From the sequence record OR352942.1: a DNA stretch of 64,000 nt; one strand, 5' to 3'. The stretch is from Escherichia phage AV112. The position numbers were made by a program, and so were the translations under genes. Below are positions 3,532-49,733 of this stretch, in pieces (the first letter of the stretch is position 1; the number at the start of each line of letters is the position of its first letter). The notes below the pieces were generated by a model, which was not told the DNA's origin, did no database searches, and saw only the letters and a program-made list of their open reading frames with translations.

Positions 3532-3545
3532 AATTACCCCTAAAG

Positions 3546-3570
3546 AAAAAAAGGGGACCAAAGTCCCCAA
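3546..3570 (-). terminator. rho-independent terminator downstream of rIIB
   Basis: Minus strand GGGGAC-tttg-GTCCCC followed by TTTTTTT. Confidence 0.6.
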
Positions 3571-3573
3571 TTA

Positions 3574-15781: not shown

Positions 15782-16528
15782 TTAACCTTTAATCAGTTGG
15801 AATAATGATGCGCTAAGTGGTAAGCCACGTTTCAATTTTAATTTACCAATTAAACCAATCTTTTCAAAACGTTGCAGACCTTGGATAACTTTATCATATG
15901 TATCGAAAAGCGATTCAGCGTCAGTTAATTTAGTTTTAGTTTTCCAGTCAGAGCCTTTAAGAAGAACGTTGAGTTTAGTAAGTTCATGGCCTTCTGCTTG
16001 ATGTGAGCCATTAATGCGTGCTTTCAAAGCAACAATTCTAAGTTTAGATTCGTTAGATAAAGGTTGATTTTTCATCATGTTCGCCATATGCTTAACACGG
16101 TTTTCACGTTTTGCTCGGATTTTTAAAATAGTACCATAAACCTTTTTAATTTGGGCCCATTTCTTCTCGTCGAGATTAAGTTTCTCTACTTTACGGGCAG
16201 AAGGATTAGCGATACGTCTTGCAATGGCATCACGTTTCTCAATAAGTTCTTCTAATGTTAAATCAGAACGAGCCGTGTTATATTTTTTCTTAACTGGGAT
16301 AACATTACCTTTAATGTAGCCGATATCGTTATTAAAACGTTCTAAGGATAATTTCTCACCTTCAACAGAGTTATTGAAAGATTCACCTGAGTAAGCGCAG
16401 ACCTTTTGATCAAGAATGTTTTTAAGGTAATTAAAGTCTAAGTTAAAATCCTTAGAGCGTCTCTTTGCAGAAGCTCTGGTGTGGTCAAGACGACGATTGA
16501 TTTTGTTAATTTTATTATTTGATAACAT
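15782..16528 (-). CDS. srd: Srd-like protein (248 aa), basic/helical
   Basis: Size and position between dda.1 and modA as in T4; highly basic sequence; assignment from synteny. Confidence 0.5.
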   Translation of the reverse strand: MLSNNKINKINRRLDHTRASAKRRSKDFNLDFNYLKNILDQKVCAYSGESFNNSVEGEKLSLERFNNDIGYIKGNVIPVKKKYNTARSDLTLEELIEKRDAIARRIANPSARKVEKLNLDEKKWAQIKKVYGTILKIRAKRENRVKHMANMMKNQPLSNESKLRIVALKARINGSHQAEGHELTKLNVLLKGSDWKTKTKLTDAESLFDTYDKVIQGLQRFEKIGLIGKLKLKRGLPLSASLFQLIKG

Positions 16529-16606
16529 AATATTTTCCTCTGTCTTACGGACGTTAGGTCATTTAGCTGATAGGGTTATAATATCATGCCCTCAGGTAGT
16601 GTACAC
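16529..16606 (-). promoter_or_regulatory. PeSL-like early promoter cassette upstream of srd
   Basis: Minus strand TGTACA -35-like, TATTAT -10, GGA Shine-Dalgarno. Confidence 0.4.
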
Positions 16607-19790: not shown

Positions 19791-20312
19791 TCAGTAACCA
19801 TTATCCTGGCGTTCAAAGTTGTGTTGGTTTTTCAAGTAGTAAAGTTTAAAGATTTCTTCAGCGGAAAGACCCAGACCTTGGAACATGTTCAGGACAAAGT
19901 GGAGGATATCAATCATCTCGAATTTAATTTCAAGCTGGTCTTCAGGAGACAGTTCATCGATACGACGATTTCGATATTCAGCATGTTGAGCTTTCCAAGG
20001 CTTCCATACAGAGCTAGCGGCTTTTTCACCATTGCTCATACCACCAAGTGAAGTCAACAGTTCACGGAATTCATCATCAATATAATCTTTCTGATTACGC
20101 AGCCAATCAACAACATCGCCAGCAGTGGCTAATTCATCAGGATGTTTGTTATGTTCAGGCTTGTCATTTGCCAGACGAACCTGTAAAGATTTCTGCATAT
20201 CAAGCATTACCTGCAGAGGGTCTTTATCTTCGTGAATCAGAGCATTAAAATAAGCTTCTTCTGCTTTATCAACACCAGAAATAAGTTGTGAACATTCGTT
20301 AAAGTGTGCCAT
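19791..20312 (-). CDS. 56: dCTP pyrophosphatase (dCTPase/dUTPase, MazG-like), about 173 aa
   Basis: Position next to soc; size close to T4 gp56; ATG at 20312 (MAHF) with AAGGAA Shine-Dalgarno, the ORF-track start being an upstream TTG. Confidence 0.75.
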   Translation of the reverse strand: MAHFNECSQLISGVDKAEEAYFNALIHEDKDPLQVMLDMQKSLQVRLANDKPEHNKHPDELATAGDVVDWLRNQKDYIDDEFRELLTSLGGMSNGEKAASSVWKPWKAQHAEYRNRRIDELSPEDQLEIKFEMIDILHFVLNMFQGLGLSAEEIFKLYYLKNQHNFERQDNGY

Positions 20313-22344: not shown

Positions 22345-23004
22345 TTAACCTCGATTCATAAATGCATTAAATATTTGGTCATCAACAGAAATTTCTAATT
22401 CGACTTCAATTGCTTCAGCCTTTTCTTCAGGTGGTAATTCGTATCCACACACTACAATTTTTTCATCGATATCAAAATATACAGAAGCAATATGATTAAT
22501 GTTATTTTCGGTTAAGTCTAAATCAACATCAACATCTTTTTGACCTACACTTAAAGGATAACTAATACGGGTTATTTTATTATCTTTAACAAAGAGTCCA
22601 CCGACATACTCTGTGCTATGTTTGAAGCTTACACGTTTCCGAAATGAAAGATATGATGCATCTTTACCGTGAGCTCGGCTCATAGGACATAATGAATAGC
22701 TAGAATAAGAGATGTCAAATCCTACACCTTCAATATGAGCCAACGTGTCATGATTAAACCAATTATAATCATATGCCAAATCCATTATATTGTAATACGT
22801 GAAAGGCACCGGATTAACATCATACGTTGTACCTTTAAAATCTGCCCAGGCAACGATTTCGTTATCTTTAACAATTACAAAAATTACACCAATATGGTAT
22901 CCATTATTATTTTCGTTCGGCGTTATATTATAACATTGTGCATTAGGAAATTTACCATATTTAAATGGTGCGTTTTTGTGCATGTAATAAATCATATTAT
23001 TCAC
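22345..23004 (-). CDS. hypothetical protein (219 aa)
   Basis: ORF-track ORF. Confidence 0.4.
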   Translation of the reverse strand: MNNMIYYMHKNAPFKYGKFPNAQCYNITPNENNNGYHIGVIFVIVKDNEIVAWADFKGTTYDVNPVPFTYYNIMDLAYDYNWFNHDTLAHIEGVGFDISYSSYSLCPMSRAHGKDASYLSFRKRVSFKHSTEYVGGLFVKDNKITRISYPLSVGQKDVDVDLDLTENNINHIASVYFDIDEKIVVCGYELPPEEKAEAIEVELEISVDDQIFNAFMNRG

Positions 23005-23353: not shown

Positions 23354-23602
23354 TTATTCTTTTTCGCGAATAATAATTACTTGTTGAGGCTGCTGGGCAG
23401 ATTTCTTTTCGGCAACGATAGACCAAATTAAAGTTCCAATCCAACCAATCATCGTCCAGTTAAAGAGTAAAGATATAAAGAAGATTGCTGTTGTGCTTTT
23501 TGTGCCACGAATAAGTGCGATTACCCAAGGCAACATGTAAATGATGATTGAACCAATACCTGCGATTAAAACTGCTACTGAACTAGCTACGAATAATTCC
23601 AT
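23354..23602 (-). CDS. small membrane protein (82 aa, two or three TM helices)
   Basis: Hydrophobic sequence. Confidence 0.4.
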   Translation of the reverse strand: MELFVASSVAVLIAGIGSIIIYMLPWVIALIRGTKSTTAIFFISLLFNWTMIGWIGTLIWSIVAEKKSAQQPQQVIIIREKE

Positions 23603-26782: not shown

Positions 26783-27124
26783 TTAAAAGAATTTAAATTT
26801 TTTCTTGGTCCGTTCATTAAAAGCTTGTTGTACTTGCATTGTAACACATTTTTCAACATGCGGTGCAAGTTCTGCTTTTCTGTCCTGGTCAAGAACTGCA
26901 AAGTCCATTACGATTTTACCATCAACCCAGTCTAGTTTTGTAATATAGACTATATGATGAGAACCATCTTCAAGTGTAATCAGAATCTCTTGAATGACAT
27001 TTTCCATTGCTGAACGGATAATTTTAAGAGATTCATTAAACACTCGTTCTTTGCGAATGTCTTCCCCTTCCGAAGAAGGGGATTCATCAACGATTTCTAG
27101 ATTTAAATCATCGAGATTATTCAT
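26783..27124 (-). CDS. 40: gp40-like protein (about 113 aa; start at MNNLDD overlapping the uvsX stop)
   Basis: Position between uvsX and 41 as in T4; call by synteny only. Confidence 0.45.
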   Translation of the reverse strand: MNNLDDLNLEIVDESPSSEGEDIRKERVFNESLKIIRSAMENVIQEILITLEDGSHHIVYITKLDWVDGKIVMDFAVLDQDRKAELAPHVEKCVTMQVQQAFNERTKKKFKFF

Positions 27125-28289
27125 CGAAATCTTCCATTTCGTCAAGGTCATTTTCTATATCTGCTGCAGACGGAGCATCAGAAGTTTTAACCGGAACTTT
27201 AGTTGTTGCTTTGCAATTAATAAGGTCGTTAACAGCGTCATCAACTTCTTTAATAGAAGAGATAGCACCTAGTTTATATTTAGTTTCAATTGCATCTCGG
27301 AAAGGTTTGTGTTTAAACAACGGTCCCCAGAATTCTACACAATCAGTAGCTTTAGCACGCCATGATTTTTCTTCACGAATCATTTCGCCTGTTTCTTCGT
27401 CAAGGAATTCACGAGCATACCACCCGGCTTTAGGCTTAACTACAAAACCAATTTCAGTTGCCATTTCTAACAAGCCACTGAACGGGTCGATACCACCATC
27501 AAAATTAACTGTGATTGGGAAAGTAGATTTTTCTTTAACGGTGCGAGATTTTTCTGCTTTCAACGTGAAGTCATAACCGGTCAATTCTGTACCTTCTTTA
27601 ACCTGACGTTTAGAGATAAAGAATACAGTGTTAGCAGAGTAAAGAATACCTGTACCACCACCCATAATCTCTTTAGGATACAATCCGCCGATTTCCATTG
27701 CTGTATGGTTAATTGCAACACACGGAATATCTTTAATAGTCAGATAAGGAGTCACAATGCGGAACAGAGATTTAAGTGCCTTAGCACGAGACATATCACC
27801 TACAACTTTCTCGTTCAATGCATCTTCGGTTTCTTTCTTAGATGCAGTATTACCGATTGAATCGATAAAGATAATAACTTTATCACCGCGTTCAATCGCG
27901 TCAAGCTGATTAGTCATATCAACTTTAAGTTGTTCGACAGATTGAATCGGAGTATGAACTACACGGTCTAAATCAACACCCATTGAACGAAAATAAGATT
28001 CTGAAGCACCAAATTCTGAATCATAGAACAAACAAATTGCATCTTTATATTTCTTCATATATGCTGCAACCATGGTCAGTCCAAACAACGTTTTAAAGTG
28101 TTTAGAAGGAGCAGCAAAAATAGTTAAGCCTGATTGCAACCCAGCATTCAGTGCACCACCTAATGCAATATTCAACATCGGAATACGAGTAGGGACTTCA
28201 TCACGATTATTAAACAGCTTAGACTTAGTCAAGTCTGCAGTCATTTTAGAAGTAGAAGCTTTAATCAGACGAGATTTTAAATCAGACAT
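27117..28289 (-). CDS. uvsX: UvsX recombinase (RecA/Rad51-like), 390 aa
   Basis: RecA-like core, Walker A-like SKHFKT region, acidic C-terminal tail; size of T4 UvsX. Confidence 0.9.
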   Translation of the reverse strand: MSDLKSRLIKASTSKMTADLTKSKLFNNRDEVPTRIPMLNIALGGALNAGLQSGLTIFAAPSKHFKTLFGLTMVAAYMKKYKDAICLFYDSEFGASESYFRSMGVDLDRVVHTPIQSVEQLKVDMTNQLDAIERGDKVIIFIDSIGNTASKKETEDALNEKVVGDMSRAKALKSLFRIVTPYLTIKDIPCVAINHTAMEIGGLYPKEIMGGGTGILYSANTVFFISKRQVKEGTELTGYDFTLKAEKSRTVKEKSTFPITVNFDGGIDPFSGLLEMATEIGFVVKPKAGWYAREFLDEETGEMIREEKSWRAKATDCVEFWGPLFKHKPFRDAIETKYKLGAISSIKEVDDAVNDLINCKATTKVPVKTSDAPSAADIENDLDEMEDFDE

Positions 28290-28382: not shown

Positions 28383-28399
28383 AGGCTCTTAACGAGCCC
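28383..28399 (-). terminator. terminator-like hairpin after the P-loop kinase gene
   Basis: Minus strand GGGCTC-gttaa-GAGCC followed by a T-rich run. Confidence 0.4.
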
Positions 28400-28937
28400 A
28401 TTTGATAATTTCTGTAATCAAATTATTACGTTCGCTTGCATTAAATCCTATAACTTTGTTAGCACCATCATGATTAAGTAATTGATACGTTTGGATTTTG
28501 TTATGAATTGCAAACTCTTCAAAATATGAAATGACTGTATTAAAACCGAATGAAGACAAAGTAATAAGGTCGTCTTCAAAACTTTCAGTCATTTCGTTAC
28601 GTGTTAAAATAATTGTGAACACATCATGGTTTTGGCAAAGACGAACATAATCCTGTTCATAAACGTCAAGAACCGAGTCCACATCTTGTCGAATACGTCC
28701 ATAAACCCAGTTACTAATATATCCACGGTCTAACAGATAAATCTTAGTAGGGTCTAAATAATTCAACATCGTTTCGAAACAGCCAACTTCATTTCGAGAT
28801 TTAACATCGAAACGTCCATCAACTGTTCGTTTAGGGAAATCAATCTTTACATATCTTTCACTAATTTCCATTATGTCATTAATGAAAGTTGTTTTACCAG
28901 CATTATCCGGGCCATCTACTAAAATAATTTTAGCCAT
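28389..28937 (-). CDS. P-loop nucleoside/nucleotide kinase (thymidylate-kinase-like), 182 aa
   Basis: Walker A GPDNAGKTT near the N-terminus and LLDRGYIS (DRY-like) motif. Confidence 0.5.
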   Translation of the reverse strand: MAKIILVDGPDNAGKTTFINDIMEISERYVKIDFPKRTVDGRFDVKSRNEVGCFETMLNYLDPTKIYLLDRGYISNWVYGRIRQDVDSVLDVYEQDYVRLCQNHDVFTIILTRNEMTESFEDDLITLSSFGFNTVISYFEEFAIHNKIQTYQLLNHDGANKVIGFNASERNNLITEIIKWAR

Positions 28938-28938
28938 T

Positions 28939-29838
28939 TTATTCCTCGATTACGACATCTTCATATTTAGGTATATTATACGGTGAAGAAATTAAAGCAT
29001 TAAAGTAGATGAACTCACCAAGACCTGGATGGAATACTTCTTCAGGATTTTCGAAATATTGAATCTTCGGTCTTCCTTTAAGAATTTGATAGTACTCAGT
29101 TTTAGTTGGTTTAAAAATTCGAATCAGTGCTTCTTCAGGATACTTATTTCTGTCGAAGCTACTATTTGGATCGGTTATATAAAGCGGTTGACCTAATTGA
29201 ATTGCACATTCAACCACTTGTTCAAAACGATAACACGGGTCACTAATTCGAAATGGATGAAAAATACCATCTAGATGAATAGGAGCCAAATCACCTACAA
29301 GACGCTGCATGATGGAAGGACGTATAACTTTCTGGGTTACGATAATCTTATTACCATCTGCACCTGCGTTAACCAGCACTTCTTTTTGACGTTCATTCAA
29401 CACAGTAGTTTGAAGTGAACGATTAACCGACAACATGTCGGTTTTTAAGAATTCGTCAATGTAAAAACGTGGTTTATTAGGGTCTGCAGTGATATTGAAA
29501 TTGAATTCTACATCAAAAGCGCCGTCATATCCAGTGATATCTGTGATTAGAAAATCACAATCATAATAAGCAATTAATGAATCAACCACAAATTCATTTT
29601 CAGACCAGAAATATTTACGAGTGTTATACGCGTTATCTTTATACCATAATGGAACAAACTTAAATTCTGGGAAAAGACGTTCGCATTCTTTAATATCAGA
29701 TGCATTACGTGGATATGTAATCACATCACCCGGATTAGCACGGTGCAAATGAAGTTGGAAGTTGCCATCCTTAAGGATAGCATACTGTCCAGTTTCATAA
29801 GACCGCATACTCAAGATAGGTACGCGGAAAATAGCCAT
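28939..29838 (-). CDS. hypothetical protein (299 aa) occupying the T4 beta-glucosyltransferase position
   Basis: ORF between uvsX and 42; no similarity to T4 beta-gt that I can recognise. Confidence 0.45.
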   Translation of the reverse strand: MAIFRVPILSMRSYETGQYAILKDGNFQLHLHRANPGDVITYPRNASDIKECERLFPEFKFVPLWYKDNAYNTRKYFWSENEFVVDSLIAYYDCDFLITDITGYDGAFDVEFNFNITADPNKPRFYIDEFLKTDMLSVNRSLQTTVLNERQKEVLVNAGADGNKIIVTQKVIRPSIMQRLVGDLAPIHLDGIFHPFRISDPCYRFEQVVECAIQLGQPLYITDPNSSFDRNKYPEEALIRIFKPTKTEYYQILKGRPKIQYFENPEEVFHPGLGEFIYFNALISSPYNIPKYEDVVIEE

Positions 29839-30554
29839 TAGTCAAGAAATCCTTTAACATAATCAAAATCACGTTCAAACACATGGGCACTTACCATGGT
29901 ATGAGTATAATCACCAACTTCTACACCACATTCGTTAGCGATATAATGAAGTAATTTTCCTTGGAGATAAAAATCCAACTGCATAACAACAGCACAGTTC
30001 TGAGAACGCATATGACAGTGGGTATAAAGCTTACCATCACGAATATAATAAGTCACTGAGTCGGTACATGGATATTCAAGTGTTTCGTCTGAATCAAGCA
30101 AAGCCTGATCAGAACTTTCTAGAATTTGGAACACAACTCTTCGAGAGTTAGGTTTTTCTTTAAGTTCTTTTAGAAGAGTTGGTAACTGGGCCGCAATGCG
30201 AGGACCATAGAAAGTGTTGAAGTTCGCAGGCAAAGCATCTGATTTTGGTTTAGAAATAAATTTAGCGACGTTAGGATATGCCTTAAATGCTTCTTCTGCA
30301 TCAGTACCACCAGAAATCATAAATTTCCAGAAATCTTCAGCATATTCATAAGAGATGCGATTAATACGTGGGTCGGTCATTTTGAATGATGAAGGGGTAT
30401 CAACAACTACTGTCATAGACCCAATTTCATTACAACGTCCAATACGAGAATCAGTTACGAATTCCGGGTTTTCTAAAATTTCACGATTGACGGCTTTAAA
30501 TGCGGATTGAAAATCTGCGGCTTTAATATATTTCATTGTGTTATGTTTTCCCAT
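29838..30554 (-). CDS. 42: dCMP hydroxymethylase (thymidylate-synthase fold), 238 aa
   Basis: Motifs SRRVVFQI and CTDSVTYYIRDGKLYTHCHMRSQN parallel T4 gp42 SRRGIMIY and CTNTVQYLIRD...NMRSND as recalled. Confidence 0.75.
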   Translation of the reverse strand: MGKHNTMKYIKAADFQSAFKAVNREILENPEFVTDSRIGRCNEIGSMTVVVDTPSSFKMTDPRINRISYEYAEDFWKFMISGGTDAEEAFKAYPNVAKFISKPKSDALPANFNTFYGPRIAAQLPTLLKELKEKPNSRRVVFQILESSDQALLDSDETLEYPCTDSVTYYIRDGKLYTHCHMRSQNCAVVMQLDFYLQGKLLHYIANECGVEVGDYTHTMVSAHVFERDFDYVKGFLD

Positions 30555-30738
30555 GTTTACCTCAATACAGTTATTATATACTCAATTCATAAAGCTTATT
30601 TGAATTTCTTAGCGATGTTGATATAACGTAGAGCTTCGGCATCGATACTTCCAAGGACGCTATGAAGGAACGCGTCGACATAGTATTCTAGTTGAACATG
30701 TTCTCTTTAATCACTTTAGCCGCTTTAGTTTCAAACAG

Positions 30739-30757
30739 GCCCATAAGGGCCTTTTTA
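30739..30757. other. GC-rich hairpin with flanking T/A runs in the 42-to-U32 intergenic region
   Basis: GGCCC-ataa-GGGCC followed by TTTTT on the plus strand and preceded by A-run on the minus strand. Confidence 0.3.
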
Positions 30758-30833
30758 AGAATTTGTTCGTTGTTGTTAATTTTAATAGTCAAAATCTCTT
30801 CGTTAAGTTGGTGGTTAAAAGTTTTTCTAGAAA

Positions 30834-31994
30834 TCATTCTGGGTACCTCAAAGCGTCATCAGAGTTAGTTATATCAATAATAGATATAGAGTTTTCCGAT
30901 AACCCATTTTTAGATAACTGACGTTTATAATATCTTTCACAATATGTACACGTCGTCCCACAGATTTCATTAGCACAATCGAAATCTGGATGTTTGAACC
31001 ACCTTTTTTCTAAAAAGCCATCTAACAAAGAGGTTTCAATATTTACCGTATGTGAAAACTCAGTCTCATTTTCAAGAGTGAAAATGGTCTCTAAAGGCTT
31101 CCACAATTCCAACAAATTACCTTCAAATTTTTCAGAAGCATAAGCTTCAAGAACTTTCAAAATGTAGTCTGTGCTACCTGTACGTCCTGAAACTTTGAAT
31201 TGAGTGATACCAATATCATTATAAAGTTTCAAATCTTGAGGACGAACAAAACGAGTTCTCAACCAGTTAAATGGATCTGTATCACGAGCTTTAATACAGT
31301 GCTGCATTGGATATCCATTTAAGGATTTGGCATCATCTACTGTAACATCAGTGCTATGGAAAATATAGCAAGAGTCACGATAACTACAATGTGTTGTATA
31401 CCCTTTACCAGCATTAGAACAGAACTCATTTACAAGAACTTCAAATATTATATTGTTCTTATTACAAAACTCTGCTGCACGCTTCAGGAAAGAAACTGAA
31501 CGGTTCTTATGAATTCCACAGCAGACCTTTTTGATATTATATTGGTCATGCAAGTATTTGATTTGAGTTACAGCATCGACATGTAGAATTGTTGAAACTT
31601 CAATCTCAATGTCTTTATTGACTTCACGAACAATTTCCATAACAACAGGGTTAGCGATAGTAATACGCCAAACGCCTATTGACCAAAGATACTGAACATA
31701 ATCCTGAATAGCTTTCTTCTTCCACTCAACTAGTTCTCTTTTTGAACCAGGATTTATCGTGTTGAGTGTATAGTTAAAGCAAATACCTAATTCGTTACAA
31801 CGTTTAACGTAATCTTCTAACATCTTTTTGTCAACGTCAGGAAGCCTAAAATCAGGTCTGGCTGCTACAAAAGCCATTTCTCTTGTAGAGCCGTATACTT
31901 CGTTTATCAAGCTATTAGGATAAGTTTTATTGAGCTCTACGATTTTATCAAGAAGAGCTAAATCAAAATTCGTTCCGATTTTAAAGGTATTCAT
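30834..31994 (-). CDS. U32-peptidase-family-like protein with C-terminal Cys cluster (386 aa)
   Basis: N-terminal region VYGSTREMAFVAARPDF resembles the U32 start; central NEFCSNAGKGYTTHCSYRDSC resembles the U32 signature; C-terminal CANEICGTTCTYC. Confidence 0.35.
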   Translation of the reverse strand: MNTFKIGTNFDLALLDKIVELNKTYPNSLINEVYGSTREMAFVAARPDFRLPDVDKKMLEDYVKRCNELGICFNYTLNTINPGSKRELVEWKKKAIQDYVQYLWSIGVWRITIANPVVMEIVREVNKDIEIEVSTILHVDAVTQIKYLHDQYNIKKVCCGIHKNRSVSFLKRAAEFCNKNNIIFEVLVNEFCSNAGKGYTTHCSYRDSCYIFHSTDVTVDDAKSLNGYPMQHCIKARDTDPFNWLRTRFVRPQDLKLYNDIGITQFKVSGRTGSTDYILKVLEAYASEKFEGNLLELWKPLETIFTLENETEFSHTVNIETSLLDGFLEKRWFKHPDFDCANEICGTTCTYCERYYKRQLSKNGLSENSISIIDITNSDDALRYPE

Positions 31995-32048
31995 TTTTGC
32001 ATCTCGCGTTAATTGTTGCGATGGTTTTTGCAGGTCTTACTTAAATTA

Positions 32049-32450
32049 TTATAGATTCGGTTTATATGATTTAAATGTTTCGAATTCGCCTTTATTCATA
32101 AGAGCTTTGAATTCGTCAGGACGCATAGCTTTGTCGTCGATAATCCAATCATATACTGGTTTATGTGTTAGCAAATTATGGTACTTCAATCCAATGTTTG
32201 CCAAGTTCTGAATCAGACTTGGGAGAATGTCAATTGCTATACGACCAGGACCGACTGACTTCATACCACGAGCAGTGTAAAGCGTTATGGTATGCCCTGC
32301 ATCATACAGGGCATTAATGGCAGACACCATTTCGACGTCTGGTTTGAAGTTCACGTAATCACGATTGTTATTCCACTCTGTTATACAATCATCGACATCA
32401 AAACAAAGATTAAGCATGTTTTTTACACGGGGCATTAGATTCGTTCCCAT
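32049..32450 (-). CDS. HAD-superfamily phosphatase-like protein (133 aa)
   Basis: Motif I-like FDVDDCIT, motif II-like TLYTARG, motif III-like DWIIDDK. Confidence 0.45.
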   Translation of the reverse strand: MGTNLMPRVKNMLNLCFDVDDCITEWNNNRDYVNFKPDVEMVSAINALYDAGHTITLYTARGMKSVGPGRIAIDILPSLIQNLANIGLKYHNLLTHKPVYDWIIDDKAMRPDEFKALMNKGEFETFKSYKPNL

Positions 32451-34120
32451 TGATGAGTGATATCGCCACCGATTGGACGATAGGAAACACCAGTTTCTTT
32501 ATCAGTTAGTACCCATTTACCAGGATTTTTTGTAATCAGAGTAGCCGTTACAGGTTCTGCTACGTCATAACTAATAGAGCCGTCCTGAAGTACACGGCCC
32601 ATGTTACGTAATTGCTTAGTCAGAAGTTCCATACCTTTATAATATGCGGCTACCGCTTTAAGTGGATTATTCTTGAAATAACCACCTAATGCAATCCAGA
32701 TAATTGCCACTGCCAAATGATGATACTCGTTAAACGAACTCATCTTTCCATATTTGTAAACTAATGGATTGATGTTAATAGTCACATTACAAGTTGTTTC
32801 ATCAATAGTAAACTGTCCCCAGGTCGGATTAGCGTTGAATTCATCATACCCTGAAACAGCATAAAGCACTTTAGCTTCGTCATACAATTTTGGTCCGTAA
32901 ATCTTGGTTTCGCCAAAATATCCACGAGGGTCGATAAACTTGACTTCGCCGTTATCAGTAATCATAGTATTACTGAAGTTCGGGTCACCATGAATAACAG
33001 AGTACTGTCCCTGAGAACGGTTATGATAACGAATAAGGTGTTCTAAAGCTTGTTTCAACATTGGCTTCAGACGCCCAATCTTAGTGTAGTTCACATGTGT
33101 GATTTTACCAAATGAATCAATCAGTGGTTGAATACTTTCACAACGATCAATAACTTTCGTATAGAATTCTTTAGTGAAATCACGACGAACAGTTTCAGGA
33201 CTTACAAAATAAGTGTCTGTGCTGAATTTCAGTGCGTCTAAAATTGCATCAACAATTTGTGGACGAGCAAGACTCGATTTGGATTTAATATATTCAAATG
33301 CTGGCTTACCTTTAATGCGTTCCATTTCAAAGTTATTTTCATTAACAGAAACTAACTGAGGAACTGAATCTGATTTCACTTTAAGATACCATGAAATCTC
33401 ATCTTTCTGAAGAGCTCGGCCCTGTTCGGTTAATGCGAATTTAGTTACAGTTTCTTCACCAATTTCAACGGCATTAAAACTACGATTAAGTTCACGAACT
33501 TCATGAGCTTTTTCAAGTTTAGGCATATCACCTAAATCAATTAGATTCATAAGCTCTGATTTATTGAATGCACTGCCGTAAAGGAATTCTACGAAATCAC
33601 GTCCTTTGCAGTATTCATGAATTTCCTCATCAGTAGAACCCATATAGAATTCCCAGTCTTTGAACTGATAAATTCCTACAACATTACCACCTGTTGAACC
33701 TACGTTAGTGATATTTTCACCGTCGAAATTATATCGACATTCGTCGCCCTTAACATAGATTGCGTTAACATTCCAAGACCACGAACCAAAATCAGGAATA
33801 ATATCACACCAGTTAACAATTACATTATGGCCGTCTAAATCTTTGTGCAATTTAGCAAGAGCATAAGCAGAACCATATGCTTCATCAACTGTACGAATAG
33901 TCACATTGAACCCTTCTTGCTCACAATAAGCTCGAACAGTTTCAGCAAATTTTGAATGAACTACTACAATAATTTCATCTGCGCCAAGGTCAGAATAAAT
34001 TGTATACAAATTGCTCAGAATAGTGTCTTGTTTATAGTTAACAAGCACCTTAGGAATATGATGCGTTATTGGATACAAACGAGTTGCCAGTCCAGCACCA
34101 AGAATAACAGCTTTTTTCAT
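32435..34120 (-). CDS. bifunctional sugar-1-phosphate nucleotidyltransferase / sugar kinase (561 aa)
   Basis: N-terminus MKKAVILGAGLATRL (G-x-G-T-R nucleotidyltransferase motif); C-terminal kinase motifs HGDPNFSN and FIDPRG. Confidence 0.6.
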   Translation of the reverse strand: MKKAVILGAGLATRLYPITHHIPKVLVNYKQDTILSNLYTIYSDLGADEIIVVVHSKFAETVRAYCEQEGFNVTIRTVDEAYGSAYALAKLHKDLDGHNVIVNWCDIIPDFGSWSWNVNAIYVKGDECRYNFDGENITNVGSTGGNVVGIYQFKDWEFYMGSTDEEIHEYCKGRDFVEFLYGSAFNKSELMNLIDLGDMPKLEKAHEVRELNRSFNAVEIGEETVTKFALTEQGRALQKDEISWYLKVKSDSVPQLVSVNENNFEMERIKGKPAFEYIKSKSSLARPQIVDAILDALKFSTDTYFVSPETVRRDFTKEFYTKVIDRCESIQPLIDSFGKITHVNYTKIGRLKPMLKQALEHLIRYHNRSQGQYSVIHGDPNFSNTMITDNGEVKFIDPRGYFGETKIYGPKLYDEAKVLYAVSGYDEFNANPTWGQFTIDETTCNVTININPLVYKYGKMSSFNEYHHLAVAIIWIALGGYFKNNPLKAVAAYYKGMELLTKQLRNMGRVLQDGSISYDVAEPVTATLITKNPGKWVLTDKETGVSYRPIGGDITHQWERI

Positions 34121-34161
34121 GTTGTGGTCCTCATTGGTAAGTAGGAGTATTGTACACTATT

Positions 34162-34305
34162 CTAGTTAAAGCATTCATACTTTGCTTGTAGTCCAATCAT
34201 AATCCATCCGATTATAAGAGTCGGAATCATTACTGGAGCCGTTAAGCTCCAGTAGATAGTCATGACAAGCATCAATAGTAAAAGTCCTATTGTTATTGCT
34301 TTCAT
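34162..34305 (-). CDS. small membrane peptide (47 aa), below ORF-track cutoff
   Basis: Hand translation MKAITIGLLLLMLVMTIYWSLTAPVMIPTLIIGWIMIGLQAKYECFN; ATGA overlap with the SIS gene stop. Confidence 0.35.
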   Translation of the reverse strand: MKAITIGLLLLMLVMTIYWSLTAPVMIPTLIIGWIMIGLQAKYECFN

Positions 34306-34937
34306 TGTTCGCCTCGTAACATGGCACCTAGTGCACCGCCAGGGTGGAACTTAAGGAAGTCATTAGAGGTAAATCCACGTTCAGACGAAAGGTTGATAGC
34401 AAACGTATCGATAAGCGCTAACAACAATGTAGTGGACATGGTCGGAGCCAGAGAATTCTCATCAACCTCTACTGCGATGCCTGTACAGAACGTATAATCA
34501 AAAAGAGCTTCGTATTCTTGTGGAATGTCCGGGTTACAATGCAACAGAATCTGTTTGACGTTCGGACGAATCATTTTAAGATGCTTAGCCACGCCTATCA
34601 TTTCTTCAGTTTTACCAGAACGACTAATATGAATCAACACATCATTAGGCGCAATGAATCCTGCATCACCGTGAGAATAATGTCCAGTGTTCAAGTACAT
34701 ACTCGGGATACCGAGTGAAGCAAATGTCTCAGAAGCTTTAGTTGCAATATTAGCATTCTTACCAACACCTGTAATAATTACTCGGCTTTCATAATTACTA
34801 AGTCCAGGACGTCGAAGAGTTTCTAGAATAGCATTATAACGAGCAGGGTTTTGACTAATTACTTTGGCCATAGCGGCCAAAGAAGAAGCTTGTTTTATGA
34901 TTGCGTCAATAGCGATAGTAATAGGAGTAGTTTTCAT
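34302..34937 (-). CDS. SIS-domain sugar-phosphate isomerase (arabinose-5-phosphate isomerase / GmhA-like), 211 aa
   Basis: SIS-domain features: ITGVGKNANIATKASETFASLG and HISRSGKTEE. Confidence 0.55.
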   Translation of the reverse strand: MKTTPITIAIDAIIKQASSLAAMAKVISQNPARYNAILETLRRPGLSNYESRVIITGVGKNANIATKASETFASLGIPSMYLNTGHYSHGDAGFIAPNDVLIHISRSGKTEEMIGVAKHLKMIRPNVKQILLHCNPDIPQEYEALFDYTFCTGIAVEVDENSLAPTMSTTLLLALIDTFAINLSSERGFTSNDFLKFHPGGALGAMLRGEQ

Positions 34938-34977: not shown

Positions 34978-37689
34978 TCAAAAATCGAACATATCGAACA
35001 GAGATGCTTTCTTCTCGTAATCGAGTTTCGCTGCTGATGTGAATCCTTCAAGTGGTTTAATAAATGTCTTCTCAAGGAGAACAGTGTAGTCCATCCAATG
35101 AAGTACGTCGTCTTTAATTAAATCTGTGATTTCAGTACCAGAAGGCCATGCGATACATTTATCACCGAATGGGTTTCCTTCACGTAAAGGCAGAACATAT
35201 ACTTTTTCACCTTCTACAACTTGTGGTGCATCGATATTACCTTTGATAGCACGGTTATACGTCAGAATTCCACGAATATGGAATGGGCATTTAGGACCAG
35301 GGAATCCACCTACATCATATTTAGCAATGTTATTCGCAGAAGATACTGACGCGATGCTAATATAATTCAATTGACGGAATTCTTTTTCAAACTCTTTAAA
35401 ATATTCTTGTAATGATTCTTCGCCTTCCTGAAGCATACGACGAATACATTCTTTAAGAGCTTTCTGTACTGCTTTAGGAGTCGAAGATTTCTGAGTCTCT
35501 AGACCCATGATTTTGAGTTTAGGCTCAGCGTATCTGGTTCCTTCCATATCCCACACGTTTAATGCATAACGTTTCTTACCAGTCCAGAATCCACCAATAC
35601 CTTTAGAACCGAGTGGAGGCCCAGCGATAGCTTCTCGGTCCATGAACATTAAGTGTTGTTTATTGTTCATGTATTCACACATTTCACGGAAACCTCTATC
35701 AATAGCTGGTTCCATACGTTCACGTGCAAACTTATCTAAGAAGTCTACCCAATGGTTGGTATCACGGAATTTAGATTCACCAACCTTATCGATAATTTTA
35801 TCAGCAGATACGTAAATAGAGTCTGTATCACCATAAAGAACGAAAGCTTCACCTTCTGTGCCACAAACTTCATTCAGATATTCATTAACTTTACGTTCAA
35901 TCCACTGTAAAGCCATTTGCCCGAATGTTGTGATTGCAGTAGCATTACGCAAATCGTAATAACGGAACCAAACGTTGCCAAGTGCACCATAAAGTGAGTT
36001 GATAAGCAATTTACGGTTAATTTGGGCAGTCATACCTGCAACTTCAGTACGTTGAGCTCTAAACAACATTTCATTAAGAGATTTAGCAGACAACTTTTTA
36101 ATCTTTTCTTTAATCTCATCACTGAAGTCGAAACGATAATCAACATCTAATGGTTCGTCAACAGAAAGATTAGGATTATGCAATGCCTCTTTAATTATTT
36201 CACCATTACGTTGAGCTGCAAGCATGTAACCTTTATGTTCTTTACGTTGATTAAAGACCTTAGTGATTTCAGTTGGAACAACACCGTCACGGTCTTTATA
36301 ATACATCATGCCGTTAGGAGAACAACTGTACACATCAGAAGGACGTTCAGCAACAGCGTTAATATAATCATGTAATGGAGCTACTTTAAACGTTCCTGCT
36401 ATTGTTTCTGGGCTAATATTCACTTGGCGAATAATACTTGGATACAGAGATGTAAGGTCGAAACTCATTACATATTTGTATCGATTTGGAATAGGTTCCT
36501 TAACAAAAGCGCCGGGATAAGGTTGAACCGGATGAGAACGACCTTGTGGAATCACCTTGTTCTGCTCTTTAAGGCTATTAAAAATAATAGCATCCCATGT
36601 TTTAATTGGGCTAAACACAGATTGAATCTGTATCTTAGCATAATAACCCATGTCCAAACTCAAGTTGATGAACTGACGTTTAGCATCAATTTGCAATACA
36701 CGATACACGTCGATAATGTTATAAGAAATATATCGTTGGTGATTGCTTTCACGAAGCTTAGAAATAGGGCCGTCATATTTCAGTTTACCAACGTTCAATT
36801 CAAATTCTGAAATGTAATCCAGAGAATACGACGGTTGATTGGTAAAAGAGAATTTTTTGTAAAGGTCAATGTAATCAAGAACAGAGATACCGAACAATGT
36901 AATGATTTCACGAGAACCATACATGTTTTCGATAACTTTAACACGAGTTTTACGATGTGGTGATAAACGTTTCGCAGTAGATTCGCCAAAAATATTCTTG
37001 ATTCGGTTATACACATATGGAATATCAAATGACTCAACGTTCCATCCAGTCAAAATGACAGGAGTTTTCTGTTGCCAGAAGTTGAGATATTCCATCAACA
37101 ATTCTTTTTCGTTATCGAACGGCATATAAATGATTTTATCGATAATTTCGGATGGGACTTCATCACCGCCTTGTTCTTGAAGCTTAGCCGCAATTTCGAT
37201 AGACCATTCTTCCACATTCCCGTATGGAGAATTCAAAAGGTCAAATACGTAGAACCTGTCGTCAATTGAGTCATAATGAGTGATAGCATCAATCGGATGT
37301 TTTGCTTGTGACGGCTCAGGGAACCCGTCTGGAGATGTTACTTCGATGTCGAAGTTAGCCACACGAATTTTTGTATGGTCGTATTTGATTTCATAGTTAT
37401 AAGTGTCAGACAAATACGCCAATTTGAAATCGTCCATGCCAAGTGCTTCAAGTCCGATATCTTCCATGCGTTTAATCCATTGGGAGGCATCACGCATATT
37501 GGCGAACAACTTACGAGTACACGGCTTACCGTAGATATCGAAATATTTCGTAGCCTGACTTTCCGGACAATGAGCAAACAGTGATGGTTTATATTCTACT
37601 TCACGAGTACGTTCACGGCCGTTAGAATCGATGTAACGTTCAAAAATTGAATCACCAATCTGTTCAACCGTTAAGTAAAATTCTTTCAT
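34978..37689 (-). CDS. 43: DNA polymerase (family B) with 3'-5' exonuclease, 903 aa
   Basis: Exo motif FDIEV, polymerase motifs SLYPS and YGDTDS; size of T4 gp43. Confidence 0.95.
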   Translation of the reverse strand: MKEFYLTVEQIGDSIFERYIDSNGRERTREVEYKPSLFAHCPESQATKYFDIYGKPCTRKLFANMRDASQWIKRMEDIGLEALGMDDFKLAYLSDTYNYEIKYDHTKIRVANFDIEVTSPDGFPEPSQAKHPIDAITHYDSIDDRFYVFDLLNSPYGNVEEWSIEIAAKLQEQGGDEVPSEIIDKIIYMPFDNEKELLMEYLNFWQQKTPVILTGWNVESFDIPYVYNRIKNIFGESTAKRLSPHRKTRVKVIENMYGSREIITLFGISVLDYIDLYKKFSFTNQPSYSLDYISEFELNVGKLKYDGPISKLRESNHQRYISYNIIDVYRVLQIDAKRQFINLSLDMGYYAKIQIQSVFSPIKTWDAIIFNSLKEQNKVIPQGRSHPVQPYPGAFVKEPIPNRYKYVMSFDLTSLYPSIIRQVNISPETIAGTFKVAPLHDYINAVAERPSDVYSCSPNGMMYYKDRDGVVPTEITKVFNQRKEHKGYMLAAQRNGEIIKEALHNPNLSVDEPLDVDYRFDFSDEIKEKIKKLSAKSLNEMLFRAQRTEVAGMTAQINRKLLINSLYGALGNVWFRYYDLRNATAITTFGQMALQWIERKVNEYLNEVCGTEGEAFVLYGDTDSIYVSADKIIDKVGESKFRDTNHWVDFLDKFARERMEPAIDRGFREMCEYMNNKQHLMFMDREAIAGPPLGSKGIGGFWTGKKRYALNVWDMEGTRYAEPKLKIMGLETQKSSTPKAVQKALKECIRRMLQEGEESLQEYFKEFEKEFRQLNYISIASVSSANNIAKYDVGGFPGPKCPFHIRGILTYNRAIKGNIDAPQVVEGEKVYVLPLREGNPFGDKCIAWPSGTEITDLIKDDVLHWMDYTVLLEKTFIKPLEGFTSAAKLDYEKKASLFDMFDF

Positions 37690-43697: not shown

Positions 43698-43926
43698 TAC
43701 ACGCTTCAGCCATTTTAAGAATAGAGCCAGGAGTATCGTTGTCCATTATATTAAAGCTAAATTCAACAGCCCAGTCGGTGCAGACATGAACTGCTTTAAC
43801 TTCATTACCTTCAACGCGTAATGGCTCAATCCAATACTTGATAGTGTTCTCGAATCCATCATCATCTTTAACGTCCATTTCAACTTCAAGCCTGAGTCCA
43901 GCATTGTTAAATTCATCTAAAGTCAT
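43669..43926 (-). CDS. hypothetical acidic protein (85 aa)
   Basis: ORF between gene 47 and the HNH gene. Confidence 0.4.
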   Translation of the reverse strand: MTLDEFNNAGLRLEVEMDVKDDDGFENTIKYWIEPLRVEGNEVKAVHVCTDWAVEFSFNIMDNDTPGSILKMAEACIEDAYNDED

Positions 43927-44942
43927 TGTGTTGCCTCAATATAAAGTTCGTTGGAATATTTGACCAGCGCTTCTCTGTCTTCGTCTGAGATATCTGGAAT
44001 CGCGTCAATATATTCTTTAATGATATCTTGAAGAGATTTAATCTCGATTTCCTGGTCGTCATCAGATTCAACACTGTTATCAACTTTAGAAACCATACGA
44101 AGAGAGTGAACTACTTTTTCAAGTTCAGATTCAAACTTAGTCAACTCTGAATCAATTTCTGATACTATAACACGTACGGCTAGATTAGTATAATCAGAAT
44201 AATTGATTTTGCCTTTAAACGGATAAGTGATTCGTCGATGCCATGTTGTTTCGTTAGGAATAAATTCCATACGTTCAACATCAGTGTCAAATACCCAAAA
44301 TCCGCGCGGGTCGTTCTCATCACCTGCAGTAAGGGTCCATGGTGTCCCAATATATTTGACGTTAGCAGCTTCAGAGATTGTGTGGAAGTGGCCGGACCAG
44401 ACTTGTTTATAGGTCTTTAAGAAATCAGGTTCAAGCCCATGAGACTTCATTCCTTTATAGAAATAAAAACCATTCAGTTCCCAGTGCCCAACACAATACG
44501 CTGCGGAAGAAGTCTTGATGTGCTCTAAGATTTCACCTGTATTTTCTTCGCACATCCATGGAACGATATCAATCAGACATCCGTCAAAATCTACAGTAGT
44601 TGGATGCTCGTAAATAGTAAAGTTTTCAAATTGAGTTAACAATTCAGAAACAGTGTTAGGTGTTATTGTATTCTTAAACGCCATGTCATGGTTTCCTATC
44701 GTGACATGAACGTGAATGCCTGCTTTAGAAATCATATCAACGATTTCACGATTGAATTCCATTGTACGATGTGTTATTGCTTTACGGACGTCAAACCAAT
44801 CACCGTACTGAATCCAAGTTTTAATCCCATGTTTCTTAGAGTATTCAATTGCTTGACGAATACCATCACGTTGAATATCTTGAACCCATGGGTCGTCTTG
44901 TTTGACTCCGATATGGAAGTCGCCTAAGTGCAAAATTTTCAT
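43923..44942 (-). CDS. 47: recombination endonuclease subunit (Mre11/SbcD-like phosphoesterase), 339 aa
   Basis: Calcineurin-like motifs LHLGDFH, GDWFD, GNHD; size equals T4 gp47. Confidence 0.9.
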   Translation of the reverse strand: MKILHLGDFHIGVKQDDPWVQDIQRDGIRQAIEYSKKHGIKTWIQYGDWFDVRKAITHRTMEFNREIVDMISKAGIHVHVTIGNHDMAFKNTITPNTVSELLTQFENFTIYEHPTTVDFDGCLIDIVPWMCEENTGEILEHIKTSSAAYCVGHWELNGFYFYKGMKSHGLEPDFLKTYKQVWSGHFHTISEAANVKYIGTPWTLTAGDENDPRGFWVFDTDVERMEFIPNETTWHRRITYPFKGKINYSDYTNLAVRVIVSEIDSELTKFESELEKVVHSLRMVSKVDNSVESDDDQEIEIKSLQDIIKEYIDAIPDISDEDREALVKYSNELYIEATQ

Positions 44943-45941: not shown

Positions 45942-46488
45942 CCTCATATAAAAAATCCAAACTAGGCGAATCGCTAACAACTTCCTTCTTTTCAGCCCCA
46001 GGAGCTTTATAAGCGGATTCTTCATAATGCGTCATTTTATCGTAGATGTCTTGAATAAACGTTTCATCTACCAACGCTACCATATCATCGTCATGACTGT
46101 CGTAGACGTTATGAACGAAGTAACTATATTTCTTTGCAACTTCCTTACGTTCTTTTTTGATACGTTGGACAAAAGCATTAAAACAAGCTCGAGTTATGTA
46201 TGCATGTGGGTTATTGTACTTAGTTTCGTCGAAATTATGAAGTCCCTTAATAGAGGCTTCAATCCCATCTGCAATCATCTCCTGCTTCCAAGACTGGGTA
46301 TATCCTGAAAAGTTGAAACGTTTGGACAGGCCTTCGGCGATAAGCATAATTGCTAAACCGATGGTATCATTCTGACGAATAATTTTGTTTGGGTCTTTAT
46401 TATTTAAGAGCTCCTTTTTCCACTCGATTATAGCGGCGAGAAGCTCTTTATTATTCACATAGTTATTTTTAGGTTTTTGTTCAGTCAT
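45931..46488 (-). CDS. 55: late-transcription sigma factor (185 aa)
   Basis: 185 aa, identical length to T4 gp55; helical sigma-like protein; located upstream of gene 47 as in T4. Confidence 0.85.
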
Positions 46489-49262: not shown

Positions 49263-49733
49263 TTAATCATGTTTCCACACCCCGTCGGTATTTGTCCAAA
49301 GTCGCTGATTATCTGATCCTCGCCACAGTTTTTTGGTCGGAAGATTTTTCTCATACTTCCCATCAATAATAACATCAACATATTTAAGCATTTCTAGTTG
49401 TTTAATATCTTCAAACTTATATCCTGTCCACAACCAAATGCTTTTATTGGGATAAAGTTTTTTTACTGTTTGAACAATGCAATGAACAACATCTTGGTTA
49501 TCAGGATAGAGAGGGTCTCCTCCAGTTATAGTTAATCCTTCTATATAATCATTATTCAAACATTCAATTAATTGTTCCAGCGTTTCACCGGTGAATGGGA
49601 TACCATTTCTAGCGTTCCATGTTGATTTATTATAACACCCCTCGCATTTATGCAAACAACCTGTAACGAAAAGAACGACCCTGCAACCGGGGCCATTCAC
49701 AAAATCGCAAGGATAAAATCTATCATAATTCAT
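49263..49733 (-). CDS. nrdG: anaerobic ribonucleotide reductase activating protein (radical SAM), 156 aa
   Basis: Cys cluster CLHKCEGC; 156 aa; directly downstream of nrdD. Confidence 0.85.
   Translation of the reverse strand: MNYDRFYPCDFVNGPGCRVVLFVTGCLHKCEGCYNKSTWNARNGIPFTGETLEQLIECLNNDYIEGLTITGGDPLYPDNQDVVHCIVQTVKKLYPNKSIWLWTGYKFEDIKQLEMLKYVDVIIDGKYEKNLPTKKLWRGSDNQRLWTNTDGVWKHD

Follow-up and report, generated by a model that had tools for sequence, protein, structure and literature searches.

The 64,000-nucleotide stretch of Escherichia phage AV112 (OR352942.1) analyzed here, which we call the window, carries a block of nine tightly packed minus-strand open reading frames (ORFs) that fills positions 28389-34937, between uvsX (27117-28289) and DNA polymerase gene 43 (34978-37689). 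Together with a glycosyltransferase gene at 7050-8150 and a dCTPase gene at 19791-20312, this block is, judging by its sequence, very probably the Mosigvirus cluster for arabinosyl-5-hydroxycytosine DNA. As a system, the cluster is already known and has been characterized experimentally in phages that are 97 to 100% identical at the protein level. Only two of its proteins, a U32-like protein and a P-loop kinase, fall outside the pathway steps assigned in the main earlier study (Lee et al. NAR 2026, PMC13326640). For the first of these, comparison of gene neighborhoods favors a function as a prephenate-dependent, O2-independent pyrimidine C5 hydroxylase, a reading that we regard as having about an even chance of being correct. 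In RB69-like phages, such an enzyme would serve as a reserve for the flavin enzyme. It would be the sole hydroxylase in many uncultured phages that have U32, a homologue of the first glycosyltransferase and often chorismate mutase or DAHP synthase, with no ThyA-like hydroxylase gene nearby.

The cluster and its predicted chemistry

By megablast, the cluster region is 100% identical to Escherichia phage AV113 (OR352943.1, Mosigvirus) and 97.5 to 99.3% identical to the next 29 best-ranked Mosigvirus records among the matches listed; the whole window, also 100% identical to AV113, corresponds to its positions 64000-127999. At least 80% of the cluster region is carried by 151 phage records. The cluster proteins are 97.7 to 99.7% identical to RB69 gp45-gp55 and 97 to 100% identical to those of phage HY126, and solved HY126 structures match three window proteins (9iqc, the ThyA homologue; 9iqw, the phosphatase; and 9iqz, the 366-aa glycosyltransferase). 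All of the ORFs that the original prediction had named between uvsX and gene 43 are present on the minus strand, several of them with overlapping stop and start codons (Table 1). Of the domains that it had assigned to them, Pfam recovers SIS, NTP_transferase and U32 and gives a weak APH-like match, and HAD is recovered through TIGR01689 and the Protein Data Bank (PDB). No Pfam model matches the glycosyltransferase called at 7050-8150, although its sequence is near-identical to that of 9iqz/9ir0, the solved HY126 glycosyltransferase. Altogether, Pfam detects none of the HAD-like protein, the 299-aa and 366-aa glycosyltransferases and the P-loop kinase, for which NCBIfam, PHROGs, the PDB or a fold search is needed.

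The ThyA-like protein in the gene 42 slot is 25% identical to T4 gp42, whereas it is 99% identical to RB69 gp48 and to the HY126 enzyme (PDB 9iqc/9ir2/9iqu). In alignments it has the D169N signature (E. coli ThyA numbering), reading MRSQN where T4 has MRSND and E. coli has QRSCD, and it also has Asp177 (N177D) and Glu143 (L143E; LEYPC). RB69 gp48 is a flavin-binding thymidylate synthase homologue that converts dCMP and O2 to 5-hydroxy-dCMP. Its product, 5-hydroxydeoxycytidine (5hodC), was demonstrated by liquid chromatography-mass spectrometry (LC-MS), an authentic standard and 18O2 labeling, and the Asn169 signature is found in every 5-hydroxy-dCMP synthase tested (PMC13326640). By these comparisons, the "gene 42" of the window is a 5-hydroxy-dCMP synthase and not the dCMP hydroxymethylase of the original prediction: the slot is the same, and the chemistry is different. 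Because of this, the acceptor of the arabinose should be 5-hydroxycytosine (5hoC), through an ether link, and not 5-hydroxymethylcytosine (hmC). RB69 DNA contains mono- and diarabinosylated 5hoC with the sugar ether-linked directly to C5, as determined by LC-MS and nuclear magnetic resonance (NMR) (PMC13326640), and virion DNA with mono- and diarabinosyl-5hoC in place of C is reported in the literature for RB69, Bas46/47, HY126 and NP. The same modification has been found in another Mosigvirus, in a study that calls the 2018 arabinosyl-hmC assignment erroneous (PMC13390438).

The branch that leads to UDP-arabinofuranose is complete in profile and PDB matches, with an isomerase for D-arabinose 5-phosphate (Ara5P), a bifunctional kinase/nucleotidyltransferase and a HAD phosphatase. 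The isomerase matches the NCBIfam models KpsF/GutQ (E = 2e-32) and KdsD (E = 1e-30) and the PDB entries 3etn, 5uqi and 2xhz, and is 99% identical to its RB69 counterpart and 100% to that of HY126. In the bifunctional protein (97% identical to HY126 and 99.5 to 99.7% to RB69), NTP_transferase matches residues 3-99 (E = 8.5e-10) and weak APH/Fructosamin_kin/EcKL matches cover residues 308-409; its motifs are GAGLATRL and HGDPNFSN/IDP. The HAD-like protein, 98% identical to those of HY126 and RB69, matches the capsule biosynthesis phosphatase model TIGR01689 (E = 4e-13) and PDB entries 9iqw (E = 6e-86) and 1xpj (E = 5e-10), and the true start of its gene is probably 32435. According to He et al. 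2026, as cited in PMC13326640, HY126 AfhE converts Ara5P to arabinose 1,5-bisphosphate and later forms UDP-arabinose, with AfhF taking off the 5-phosphate in between. AfhE and AfhF are all that is required to make UDP-arabinofuranose from Ara5P (PMC13326640).

Fold searching places the 299-aa protein, whose gene adjoins that of the hydroxylase, in the GT-B class, and a PDB sequence search with it returned no match. The 366-aa transferase matches PDB 9iqz/9ir0, "phage HY126 glycosyltransferase" (E = 1.9e-252), and phrog_8302. For the P-loop kinase, the PHROGs match is phrog_761, "thymidylate kinase" (E = 7e-45), dTMP kinase/AAA matches are weak, and PDB sequence matches are at chance level (E ≥ 0.058); its gene is always beside or close to that of the first glycosyltransferase (GT1, the 299-aa protein) in related phages. 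Its substrate may be a modified deoxynucleoside monophosphate (dNMP). In RB69, 5-hydroxy-dCMP is already phosphorylated by the dNMP kinase of the T4 gp1 type (PMC13326640). As a speculation, a dedicated kinase coupled to a transferase would be in keeping with glycosylation of the mononucleotide.

The T4 glucosylation genes are missing. Between gp47 (43926-44942) and gp55 (45943-46488) there are only small ORFs of ≤324 bp, and tblastn found no homologue of T4 alpha-gt or beta-gt anywhere in the 64-kb window (best E = 1.4 to 2.7). The original prediction was therefore right that alpha-gt is absent between genes 47 and 55. It also noted that the module sits where T4 has beta-gt and imm; imm itself is kept. 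It is found at 23357-23602 (minus strand), near sp and gene 61, and its product is 65% identical to T4 Imm. The sugar module has displaced imm from its T4 slot between genes 42 and 43 and has not replaced it.

Based on steps shown in near-identical phages, the pathway would begin with gp56, which would convert dCTP to dCMP, and continue with the ThyA-like enzyme, which would hydroxylate dCMP at C5 with O2 and flavin. A dNMP kinase coded outside the window and host enzymes would then produce 5-hydroxy-dCTP, to be polymerized into DNA. In the sugar branch, also shown in near-identical phages, the SIS isomerase would convert ribulose 5-phosphate (Ru5P) to Ara5P, the bifunctional enzyme would convert this to arabinose 1,5-bisphosphate, the HAD phosphatase would remove the 5-phosphate, and the N-terminal domain of the bifunctional enzyme would form UDP-arabinofuranose. 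The last two steps are predictions, namely that the 299-aa GT-B protein puts the first arabinose on the 5-OH and that the 366-aa GT-B protein adds the second. This agrees with the original prediction of a self-contained route from a pentose phosphate to an NDP-sugar, here NDP-arabinose, with transferases that replace the glucosylation genes of T4. The HAD-like (AfhF-type) and 299-aa proteins, which it could not tie to a described pathway, now have places in one, and the U32-like protein alone of the three is still without one.

What counts against the assignment of the cluster is that for AV113 it is made from near-identity to RB69, HY126, Bas46 and Bas47, that both arabinose attachments by transferases of the RB69 type are predictions, and that single DLP3 transferases were inactive on 5hoC DNA (PMC13326640).

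Two other accounts of the module fare much worse. The original prediction had the module arabinosylate hmC, a proposal that Thomas et al. 2018 (PMC6024577) were the first to make for RB69 and that has since been revised (PMC13326640, PMC13390438). It was correct about the phage group and about arabinose, and the ThyA-like gene does occupy the T4 gene 42 position, encode a thymidylate synthase superfamily member and specify the dCMP-selecting Asp177 together with Glu143, both as in hydroxymethylases. However, the low identity to T4 gp42, the replacement of Asp169 by Asn and the 99% identity to a proven 5hodC-making enzyme all argue against hmC as the acceptor, as do the NMR and mass spectrometry data on RB69 DNA, which place the ether link straight on C5, and the rejection of arabinosyl-hmC in PMC13390438. 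We consider arabinosyl-hmC very unlikely. An even slighter probability attaches to the idea that the sugar genes are an auxiliary metabolic cassette for the host envelope (KDO, capsule or lipopolysaccharide arabinose) and not for phage DNA. The isomerase is of the KdsD/GutQ/KpsF type, the phosphatase matches a capsule biosynthesis family, and public records carry labels such as "capsular polysaccharide biosynthesis protein." Nevertheless, DNA replication genes surround the module, which shows translational coupling with the genes of a GT-B transferase and of the enzyme that modifies the base. The second transferase is the one whose structure was solved for HY126, and all cytosines are arabinosylated in near-identical phages (PMC13326640, PMC13390438).

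The U32-like protein and its gene neighborhoods

The U32-like protein is 18 to 19% identical to UbiU/UbiV/TrhP-type proteins. Its AlphaFold2 model, made with 57 sequences, has a predicted local distance difference test score of 92.2, and in a Foldseek search the top PDB match of this model was the U32 structure 5d88, the remainder being generic TIM barrels. A PDB search with the sequence gave no match. Ten cysteines are invariant in the phage subfamily: C158, C177, C192, C203, C209, C233 and a C-terminal C340-x4-C-x3-C-x2-C352 motif. C203 and C209 align with UbiU C169/C176, TrhP C170/C177 and UbiV C180, and the aligned cysteines of UbiU, UbiV and TrhP are experimentally defined [4Fe-4S] ligands (bioRxiv 10.1101/587956). 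Between the Escherichia phage and an Enterobacter phage (Entb_45), the U32 protein is 87% identical, which puts it level with the HAD phosphatase at the top of the cluster for conservation, and the other five proteins are 68 to 82% identical.

Prephenate is the oxygen donor for UbiU/UbiV-dependent, O2-independent hydroxylations and has been proposed as such for U32 proteins in general (PMC10990095). When 5-hydroxyuridine (ho5U) is formed in tRNA, the O2-dependent TrhO has a prephenate-dependent partner in TrhP (PMC6599085), and RlhA makes 5-hydroxycytidine (ho5C) in 23S rRNA (PMC5727448). In Table 1 of PMC13326640, gp50 is labeled "sugar or heterocycle reductase" from fold matches, as a guess. 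That paper notes that pyrimidine hydroxylation in tRNA and rRNA uses no ThyA-like synthase homologue; it does not remark on the family tie between gp50 and RlhA/TrhP, and chorismate, prephenate and U32 are not mentioned in it. Full-text searches of the literature, which did not extend to He et al. 2026 or Mahler et al. 2025, turned up no relevant connection of phage 5hoC with U32, prephenate or chorismate mutase.

The U32 gene is found in 221 phage records, all ≥80% identical, and the hosts are all Enterobacterales or Shewanella. GT1 is found in 348 records, 57 of which are from phages of Acinetobacter, a strict aerobe, and none of these 57 has a U32 match. The DLP3 cluster described in PMC13326640 is likewise without a U32 gene. 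In 56 records of T4-like phages from more than 10 host genera, an AroQ chorismate mutase of 75 to 97 aa is encoded directly after U32, often overlapping the U32 stop codon. The hosts include Klebsiella, Serratia, Yersinia, Enterobacter, Edwardsiella, Erwinia, Proteus, Pectobacterium, Providencia, Morganella, Kosakonia and Shewanella, as well as E. coli (phage EcS1). These mini chorismate mutases score 35 to 41 bits against CM_2 (cutoff, 27) and retain 6 of the 8 active-site residues of EcCM, and the pair of genes is intact even in the rearranged cluster of Shewanella phage Thanatos.

Homologues of the U32 protein at 40 to 58% identity are common in metagenomic viral contigs beyond the T4-like phages. 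We scored 31 distinct distant U32 loci (clustered at 90% identity) with purpose-built hidden Markov models (HMMs). A GT1 homologue is present in 18 of the 31, usually immediately upstream with overlapping ends, an AfhE-like bifunctional gene in 12, and a SIS isomerase gene in 9. Chorismate mutase is encoded in 6, either as a stand-alone gene just downstream or fused to DAHP synthase (CM_2, 39 to 86 bits; DAHP_synth_1, 85 to 125 bits), and in one additional locus (L013) DAHP synthase adjoins U32. At least one gene for GT1, the AfhE-like protein, the isomerase or chorismate mutase/DAHP synthase is present in 23 of the 31. One locus (L024) has the gene order gp45-like kinase, GT1, U32, TAGT-like glycosyltransferase and dUTPase, followed by UDP-galactopyranose mutase. 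A D169N ThyA-like gene is present in none of the 31 within about 9 kb; the one thymidylate synthase detected (L043) keeps Asp169 and Asn177 and is an ordinary ThyA.

The DAHP synthase and chorismate mutase genes of these uncultured viral contigs are phage-borne shikimate pathway genes, and some of the genomes are 190 to 290 kb in size. A further metagenomic contig (L008, 13227-14360) has two divergent U32 paralogues, 22% identical and about 4 kb apart, among genes for dNK, NT5C, a nucleoside deoxyribosyltransferase and radical SAM proteins.

Several lines of evidence lead us to favor prephenate-dependent hydroxylation. U32 is linked in three ways (mini chorismate mutase, stand-alone chorismate mutase and DAHP synthase-chorismate mutase fusion) to enzymes that form prephenate; it is linked to a glycosyltransferase that needs a hydroxylated base; and it occurs in loci that have no O2-dependent hydroxylase nearby, whereas phages of strict aerobes do not have it. 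Further support comes from the U32 domain and fold, the cysteines that align with Fe-S ligands, the high conservation of the protein and the anaerobic ribonucleotide reductase genes nrdD/nrdG carried by the phage (49263-51547). The U32-like protein would thus supply 5hoC when O2 is lacking, in the window phage with prephenate from the host, as the phage lacks its own chorismate mutase; Mosigviruses, the window phage among them, are without the mutase and would rely on host PheA/TyrA. Such a division of labor between the U32 and flavin enzymes would parallel that of TrhP and TrhO in tRNA hydroxylation and of UbiUV and UbiIHF in ubiquinone synthesis.

A number of observations count against this reading. 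In a CM_2 search, the window is without a chorismate mutase, and the ORF that follows U32 is of the unrelated ORF049c type. The absence of a ThyA-like gene from the distant loci holds for flanks of 7 to 10 kb on either side only. Only 2 of the 4 canonical cysteine ligands align cleanly, with C192 and C233 invariant nearby, and the spacing is C-x10-C-x5-C-x23-C rather than the usual C-x6-C-x15/16-C-x3/4 (or x38)-C. The NCBIfam UbiU model scores 19.4 bits against a cutoff of 440, and TrhP gives only a faint match, in homologues. Because of the different spacing and these scores far below threshold, we take the protein to represent a separate phage-borne subfamily and not a characterized equivalog. 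Lastly, Dhakaviruses, of which JS98 is one, infect E. coli and have no U32.

Three further readings were rejected. The ORF049c-type protein is not a diverged chorismate mutase, as it has no CM_2 match and no convincing alignment, and Yersinia phage TG1 and Serratia phage 92A1 hold both genes side by side. The only HMM match to chorismate mutase in the window, at 15785-16558, is weak and was dismissed as a biased helical match (domain E = 0.057). A simple rule by which every facultatively anaerobic host goes with U32 is broken by JS98, which is without the isomerase as well. In JS98 (L010), genes for the hydroxylase, GT1, the kinase, the HAD protein and the bifunctional enzyme are present, those for U32 and the SIS isomerase are absent, and a 166-aa ORF in the isomerase position (3159-3659) gave no match in a search of NCBIfam only.

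The main rival to the hydroxylase reading is that the U32-like protein is a reductase or takes part in the sugar branch, for example by tailoring arabinose or an intermediate. Its gene lies between those of the phosphatase and the ThyA-like enzyme, inside a sugar/nucleotide cluster, its neighbors in distant phages include genes for AfhE-like, SIS, epimerase/RmlD-like and UDP-galactopyranose mutase proteins, and the TIM barrel of U32 proteins is a common fold among sugar enzymes. This alternative is weakened because UDP-arabinofuranose synthesis needs only AfhE and AfhF (PMC13326640) and because the same arabinosyl-5hoC is made in DLP3 and further Acinetobacter phages, which have no U32. In addition, the linkage that recurs is to chorismate mutase/DAHP synthase, sugar chemistry is not known for U32 proteins, and the invariant cysteines fit an iron-sulfur (Fe-S) redox enzyme. 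We therefore judge sugar tailoring or reduction to be unlikely. Far less probable still is a genuine peptidase of the collagenase type, which is what membership in Pfam Peptidase_U32 and the GenBank labels "peptidase" and "collagenase-like protease" would imply. The gene context is nucleotide and DNA modification metabolism throughout. To our knowledge, no catalytic peptidase residues have been defined for the Peptidase_U32 family. The U32 proteins that have been studied, UbiU/V, TrhP and RlhA, are Fe-S proteins needed for O2-independent hydroxylations (PMC10990095, PMC6599085, PMC5727448), with the caveat that direct in vitro hydroxylase activity has not been shown for them.

Table 1. Features of the arabinosyl-5hoC cluster in the window and prephenate-pathway genes next to U32 in distant loci (prefix L)
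Position	Strand	Feature	Basis or remark
7050-8150	-	Predicted second arabinosyltransferase, GT-B, 366 aa; RB69 gp3/ORF003c	Between rIIA and topoisomerase gene 39
19791-20312	-	dCTP pyrophosphatase gp56	Annotation; Pfam dUTPase_2/PRA-PH; pathway member in PMC13326640; removes dCTP, supplies dCMP
28389-28937	-	P-loop nucleotide kinase, thymidylate kinase type; RB69 gp45	Walker A GPDNAGKT
28939-29838	-	Compact GT-B glycosyltransferase (GT1), 299 aa, predicted first (base-proximal) arabinosyltransferase; RB69 gp46:47	
29838-30554	-	Assigned 5-hydroxy-dCMP synthase, ThyA superfamily, flavin/O2 dependent; RB69 gp48 equivalent	Pfam Thymidylat_synt, E = 2e-15
30574-30837	-	Remnant of RB69 ORF049c-type 79-aa gene	Frameshifted; 49-aa ORF left at 30688-30837
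30834-31994	-	U32 family Fe-S-type protein; RB69 gp50	Pfam Peptidase_U32, E = 6e-11, 42.4 bits (cutoff, 22.4)
32049-32450	-	HAD-like Mg-dependent phosphatase, AfhF type; RB69 gp51	Arabinose 1,5-bisphosphate to arabinose 1-phosphate
32435-34120	-	Bifunctional Ara5P 1-kinase/UDP-arabinose pyrophosphorylase, AfhE type, 561 aa; RB69 gp52:53	
34162-34305	-	Hydrophobic 47-aa ORF; RB69 ORF054c equivalent	Annotated in AV113; between isomerase and bifunctional genes
34302-34937	-	D-Arabinose-5-phosphate isomerase, SIS domain; RB69 gp55 equivalent	Ru5P to Ara5P; Pfam SIS, E = 1.7e-10
L052 7399-8430		DAHP synthase-chorismate mutase fusion or stand-alone mutase	Next to U32
L055 7290-8354		DAHP synthase-chorismate mutase fusion or stand-alone mutase	Next to U32
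L056 7323-8384		DAHP synthase-chorismate mutase fusion or stand-alone mutase	Next to U32
L066 10076-11194		DAHP synthase-chorismate mutase fusion or stand-alone mutase	Next to U32
L058 10107-10433		DAHP synthase-chorismate mutase fusion or stand-alone mutase	Next to U32
L060 9953-10420		DAHP synthase-chorismate mutase fusion or stand-alone mutase	Next to U32

Comparison with known systems

The closest known system is that of RB69 (gp45-gp55 and gp3; PMC13326640, first noted in PMC6024577), which belongs to the same genus and has the same gene order and content, with the second transferase likewise between rIIA and gene 39. The differences are that the genes for the 299-aa and 561-aa proteins are each one unbroken ORF in the window, whereas the RB69 reference record splits both through sequencing errors, and that ORF049c is frameshifted in the window. 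Alignment with Bas46 DNA shows that this gene, which encodes 79 aa in RB69 and Bas46, is broken by a 2-bp (AG) insertion. It is also shortened in HY126 and some other Mosigviruses, and its family is phrog_8601, to which no function is attached. The product of the 47-aa ORF is 100% identical to that of HY126, 98% to RB69, 64% to Entb_45 and 57% to JS98. With respect to the Afh pathway of HY126, the hydroxylase (PDB 9iqc/9ir2/9iqu), phosphatase (9iqw) and glycosyltransferase (9iqz/9ir0) are essentially the window proteins, and the pathway as described in PMC13326640 shows no difference of substance.

The glucosyl-hmC system of T4 (gp42, alpha-gt, beta-gt, gp56 and gp1) follows the same logic of a ThyA superfamily enzyme that acts on dCMP, a dCTPase and GT-B transferases that use a UDP-sugar, and it occupies the same slot from uvsX to gene 43. 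In contrast, the base in T4 is hmC, made by folate chemistry, and in the window it would be 5hoC, made by O2/flavin chemistry; the sugar in T4 is glucose from host UDP-glucose, and in the window it would be arabinofuranose made by phage enzymes. The alpha- and beta-glucosyltransferases and a gp42-type hydroxymethylase with Asp169 are absent from the window. Acinetobacter phage DLP3 (gp76-gp83) and Rhizobium phage RL38J1, which have glycosyl-5hoC (PMC13326640), share the D169N ThyA-like hydroxylase and GT-B transferases with the window, and DLP3 also has counterparts of the isomerase, AfhE-like, HAD and kinase genes. Unlike the window, both are without U32. An additional pair of transferases in DLP3 leads to a triarabinosyl product, and RL38J1 has hexoses and a UDP-galactopyranose mutase.

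The phage U32 protein shares the U32 domain and fold and conserved cysteines in the Fe-S ligand region with UbiU/UbiV, TrhP (ho5U34 in tRNA) and RlhA (ho5C2501 in 23S rRNA). The ho5C of RlhA results from the same C5 hydroxylation chemistry on a pyrimidine as the product presumed for the phage protein, and we count the genomic coupling to prephenate-forming enzymes as a further likeness of the phage clade to prephenate-dependent U32 hydroxylases. The phage proteins differ in having the extra invariant C-terminal cysteine motif and in their presumed substrate, a deoxynucleotide or DNA, whereas UbiU/V, TrhP and RlhA act on RNA or a quinone.

Further genes of the window and biological meaning

Three other observations concern genes away from the cluster. 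The 219-aa protein encoded at 22345-23004 (minus strand), hypothetical in AV113, is an anti-defense gene product, as Pfam AdfA (anti-DarT factor A) matches it over its full length (E = 5e-120). The nrdG (49263-49733) and nrdD (49730-51547) genes are on the minus strand, and a homing endonuclease ORF (51538-52359, minus strand) is inserted before the endonuclease VII gene. At about 53.9 to 61.6 kb of the window, some 12 consecutive genes of very different sizes are all labeled "thioredoxin" in the AV113 GenBank record, which looks like an error of annotation propagation.

As already published, the cluster accounts for the resistance of Mosigvirus DNA to many restriction enzymes and CRISPR tools and for its recognition by some type IV systems. 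The published hydroxylase requires O2. These gut-living phages encode a ribonucleotide reductase of the anaerobic type and break down dCTP. Should the U32-like protein indeed be a prephenate-dependent hydroxylase, it would explain how cytosine can be fully replaced without O2, as in infection of the anaerobic gut, and it would extend chemistry with an organic oxygen donor from RNA and quinones to DNA. It would also be the first U32 enzyme in DNA modification and would provide a second, convergent route to 5-hydroxycytosine DNA. In that case, U32 together with GT1, with or without chorismate mutase, would be a marker for glycosylated hydroxypyrimidine DNA in phages of anaerobes.

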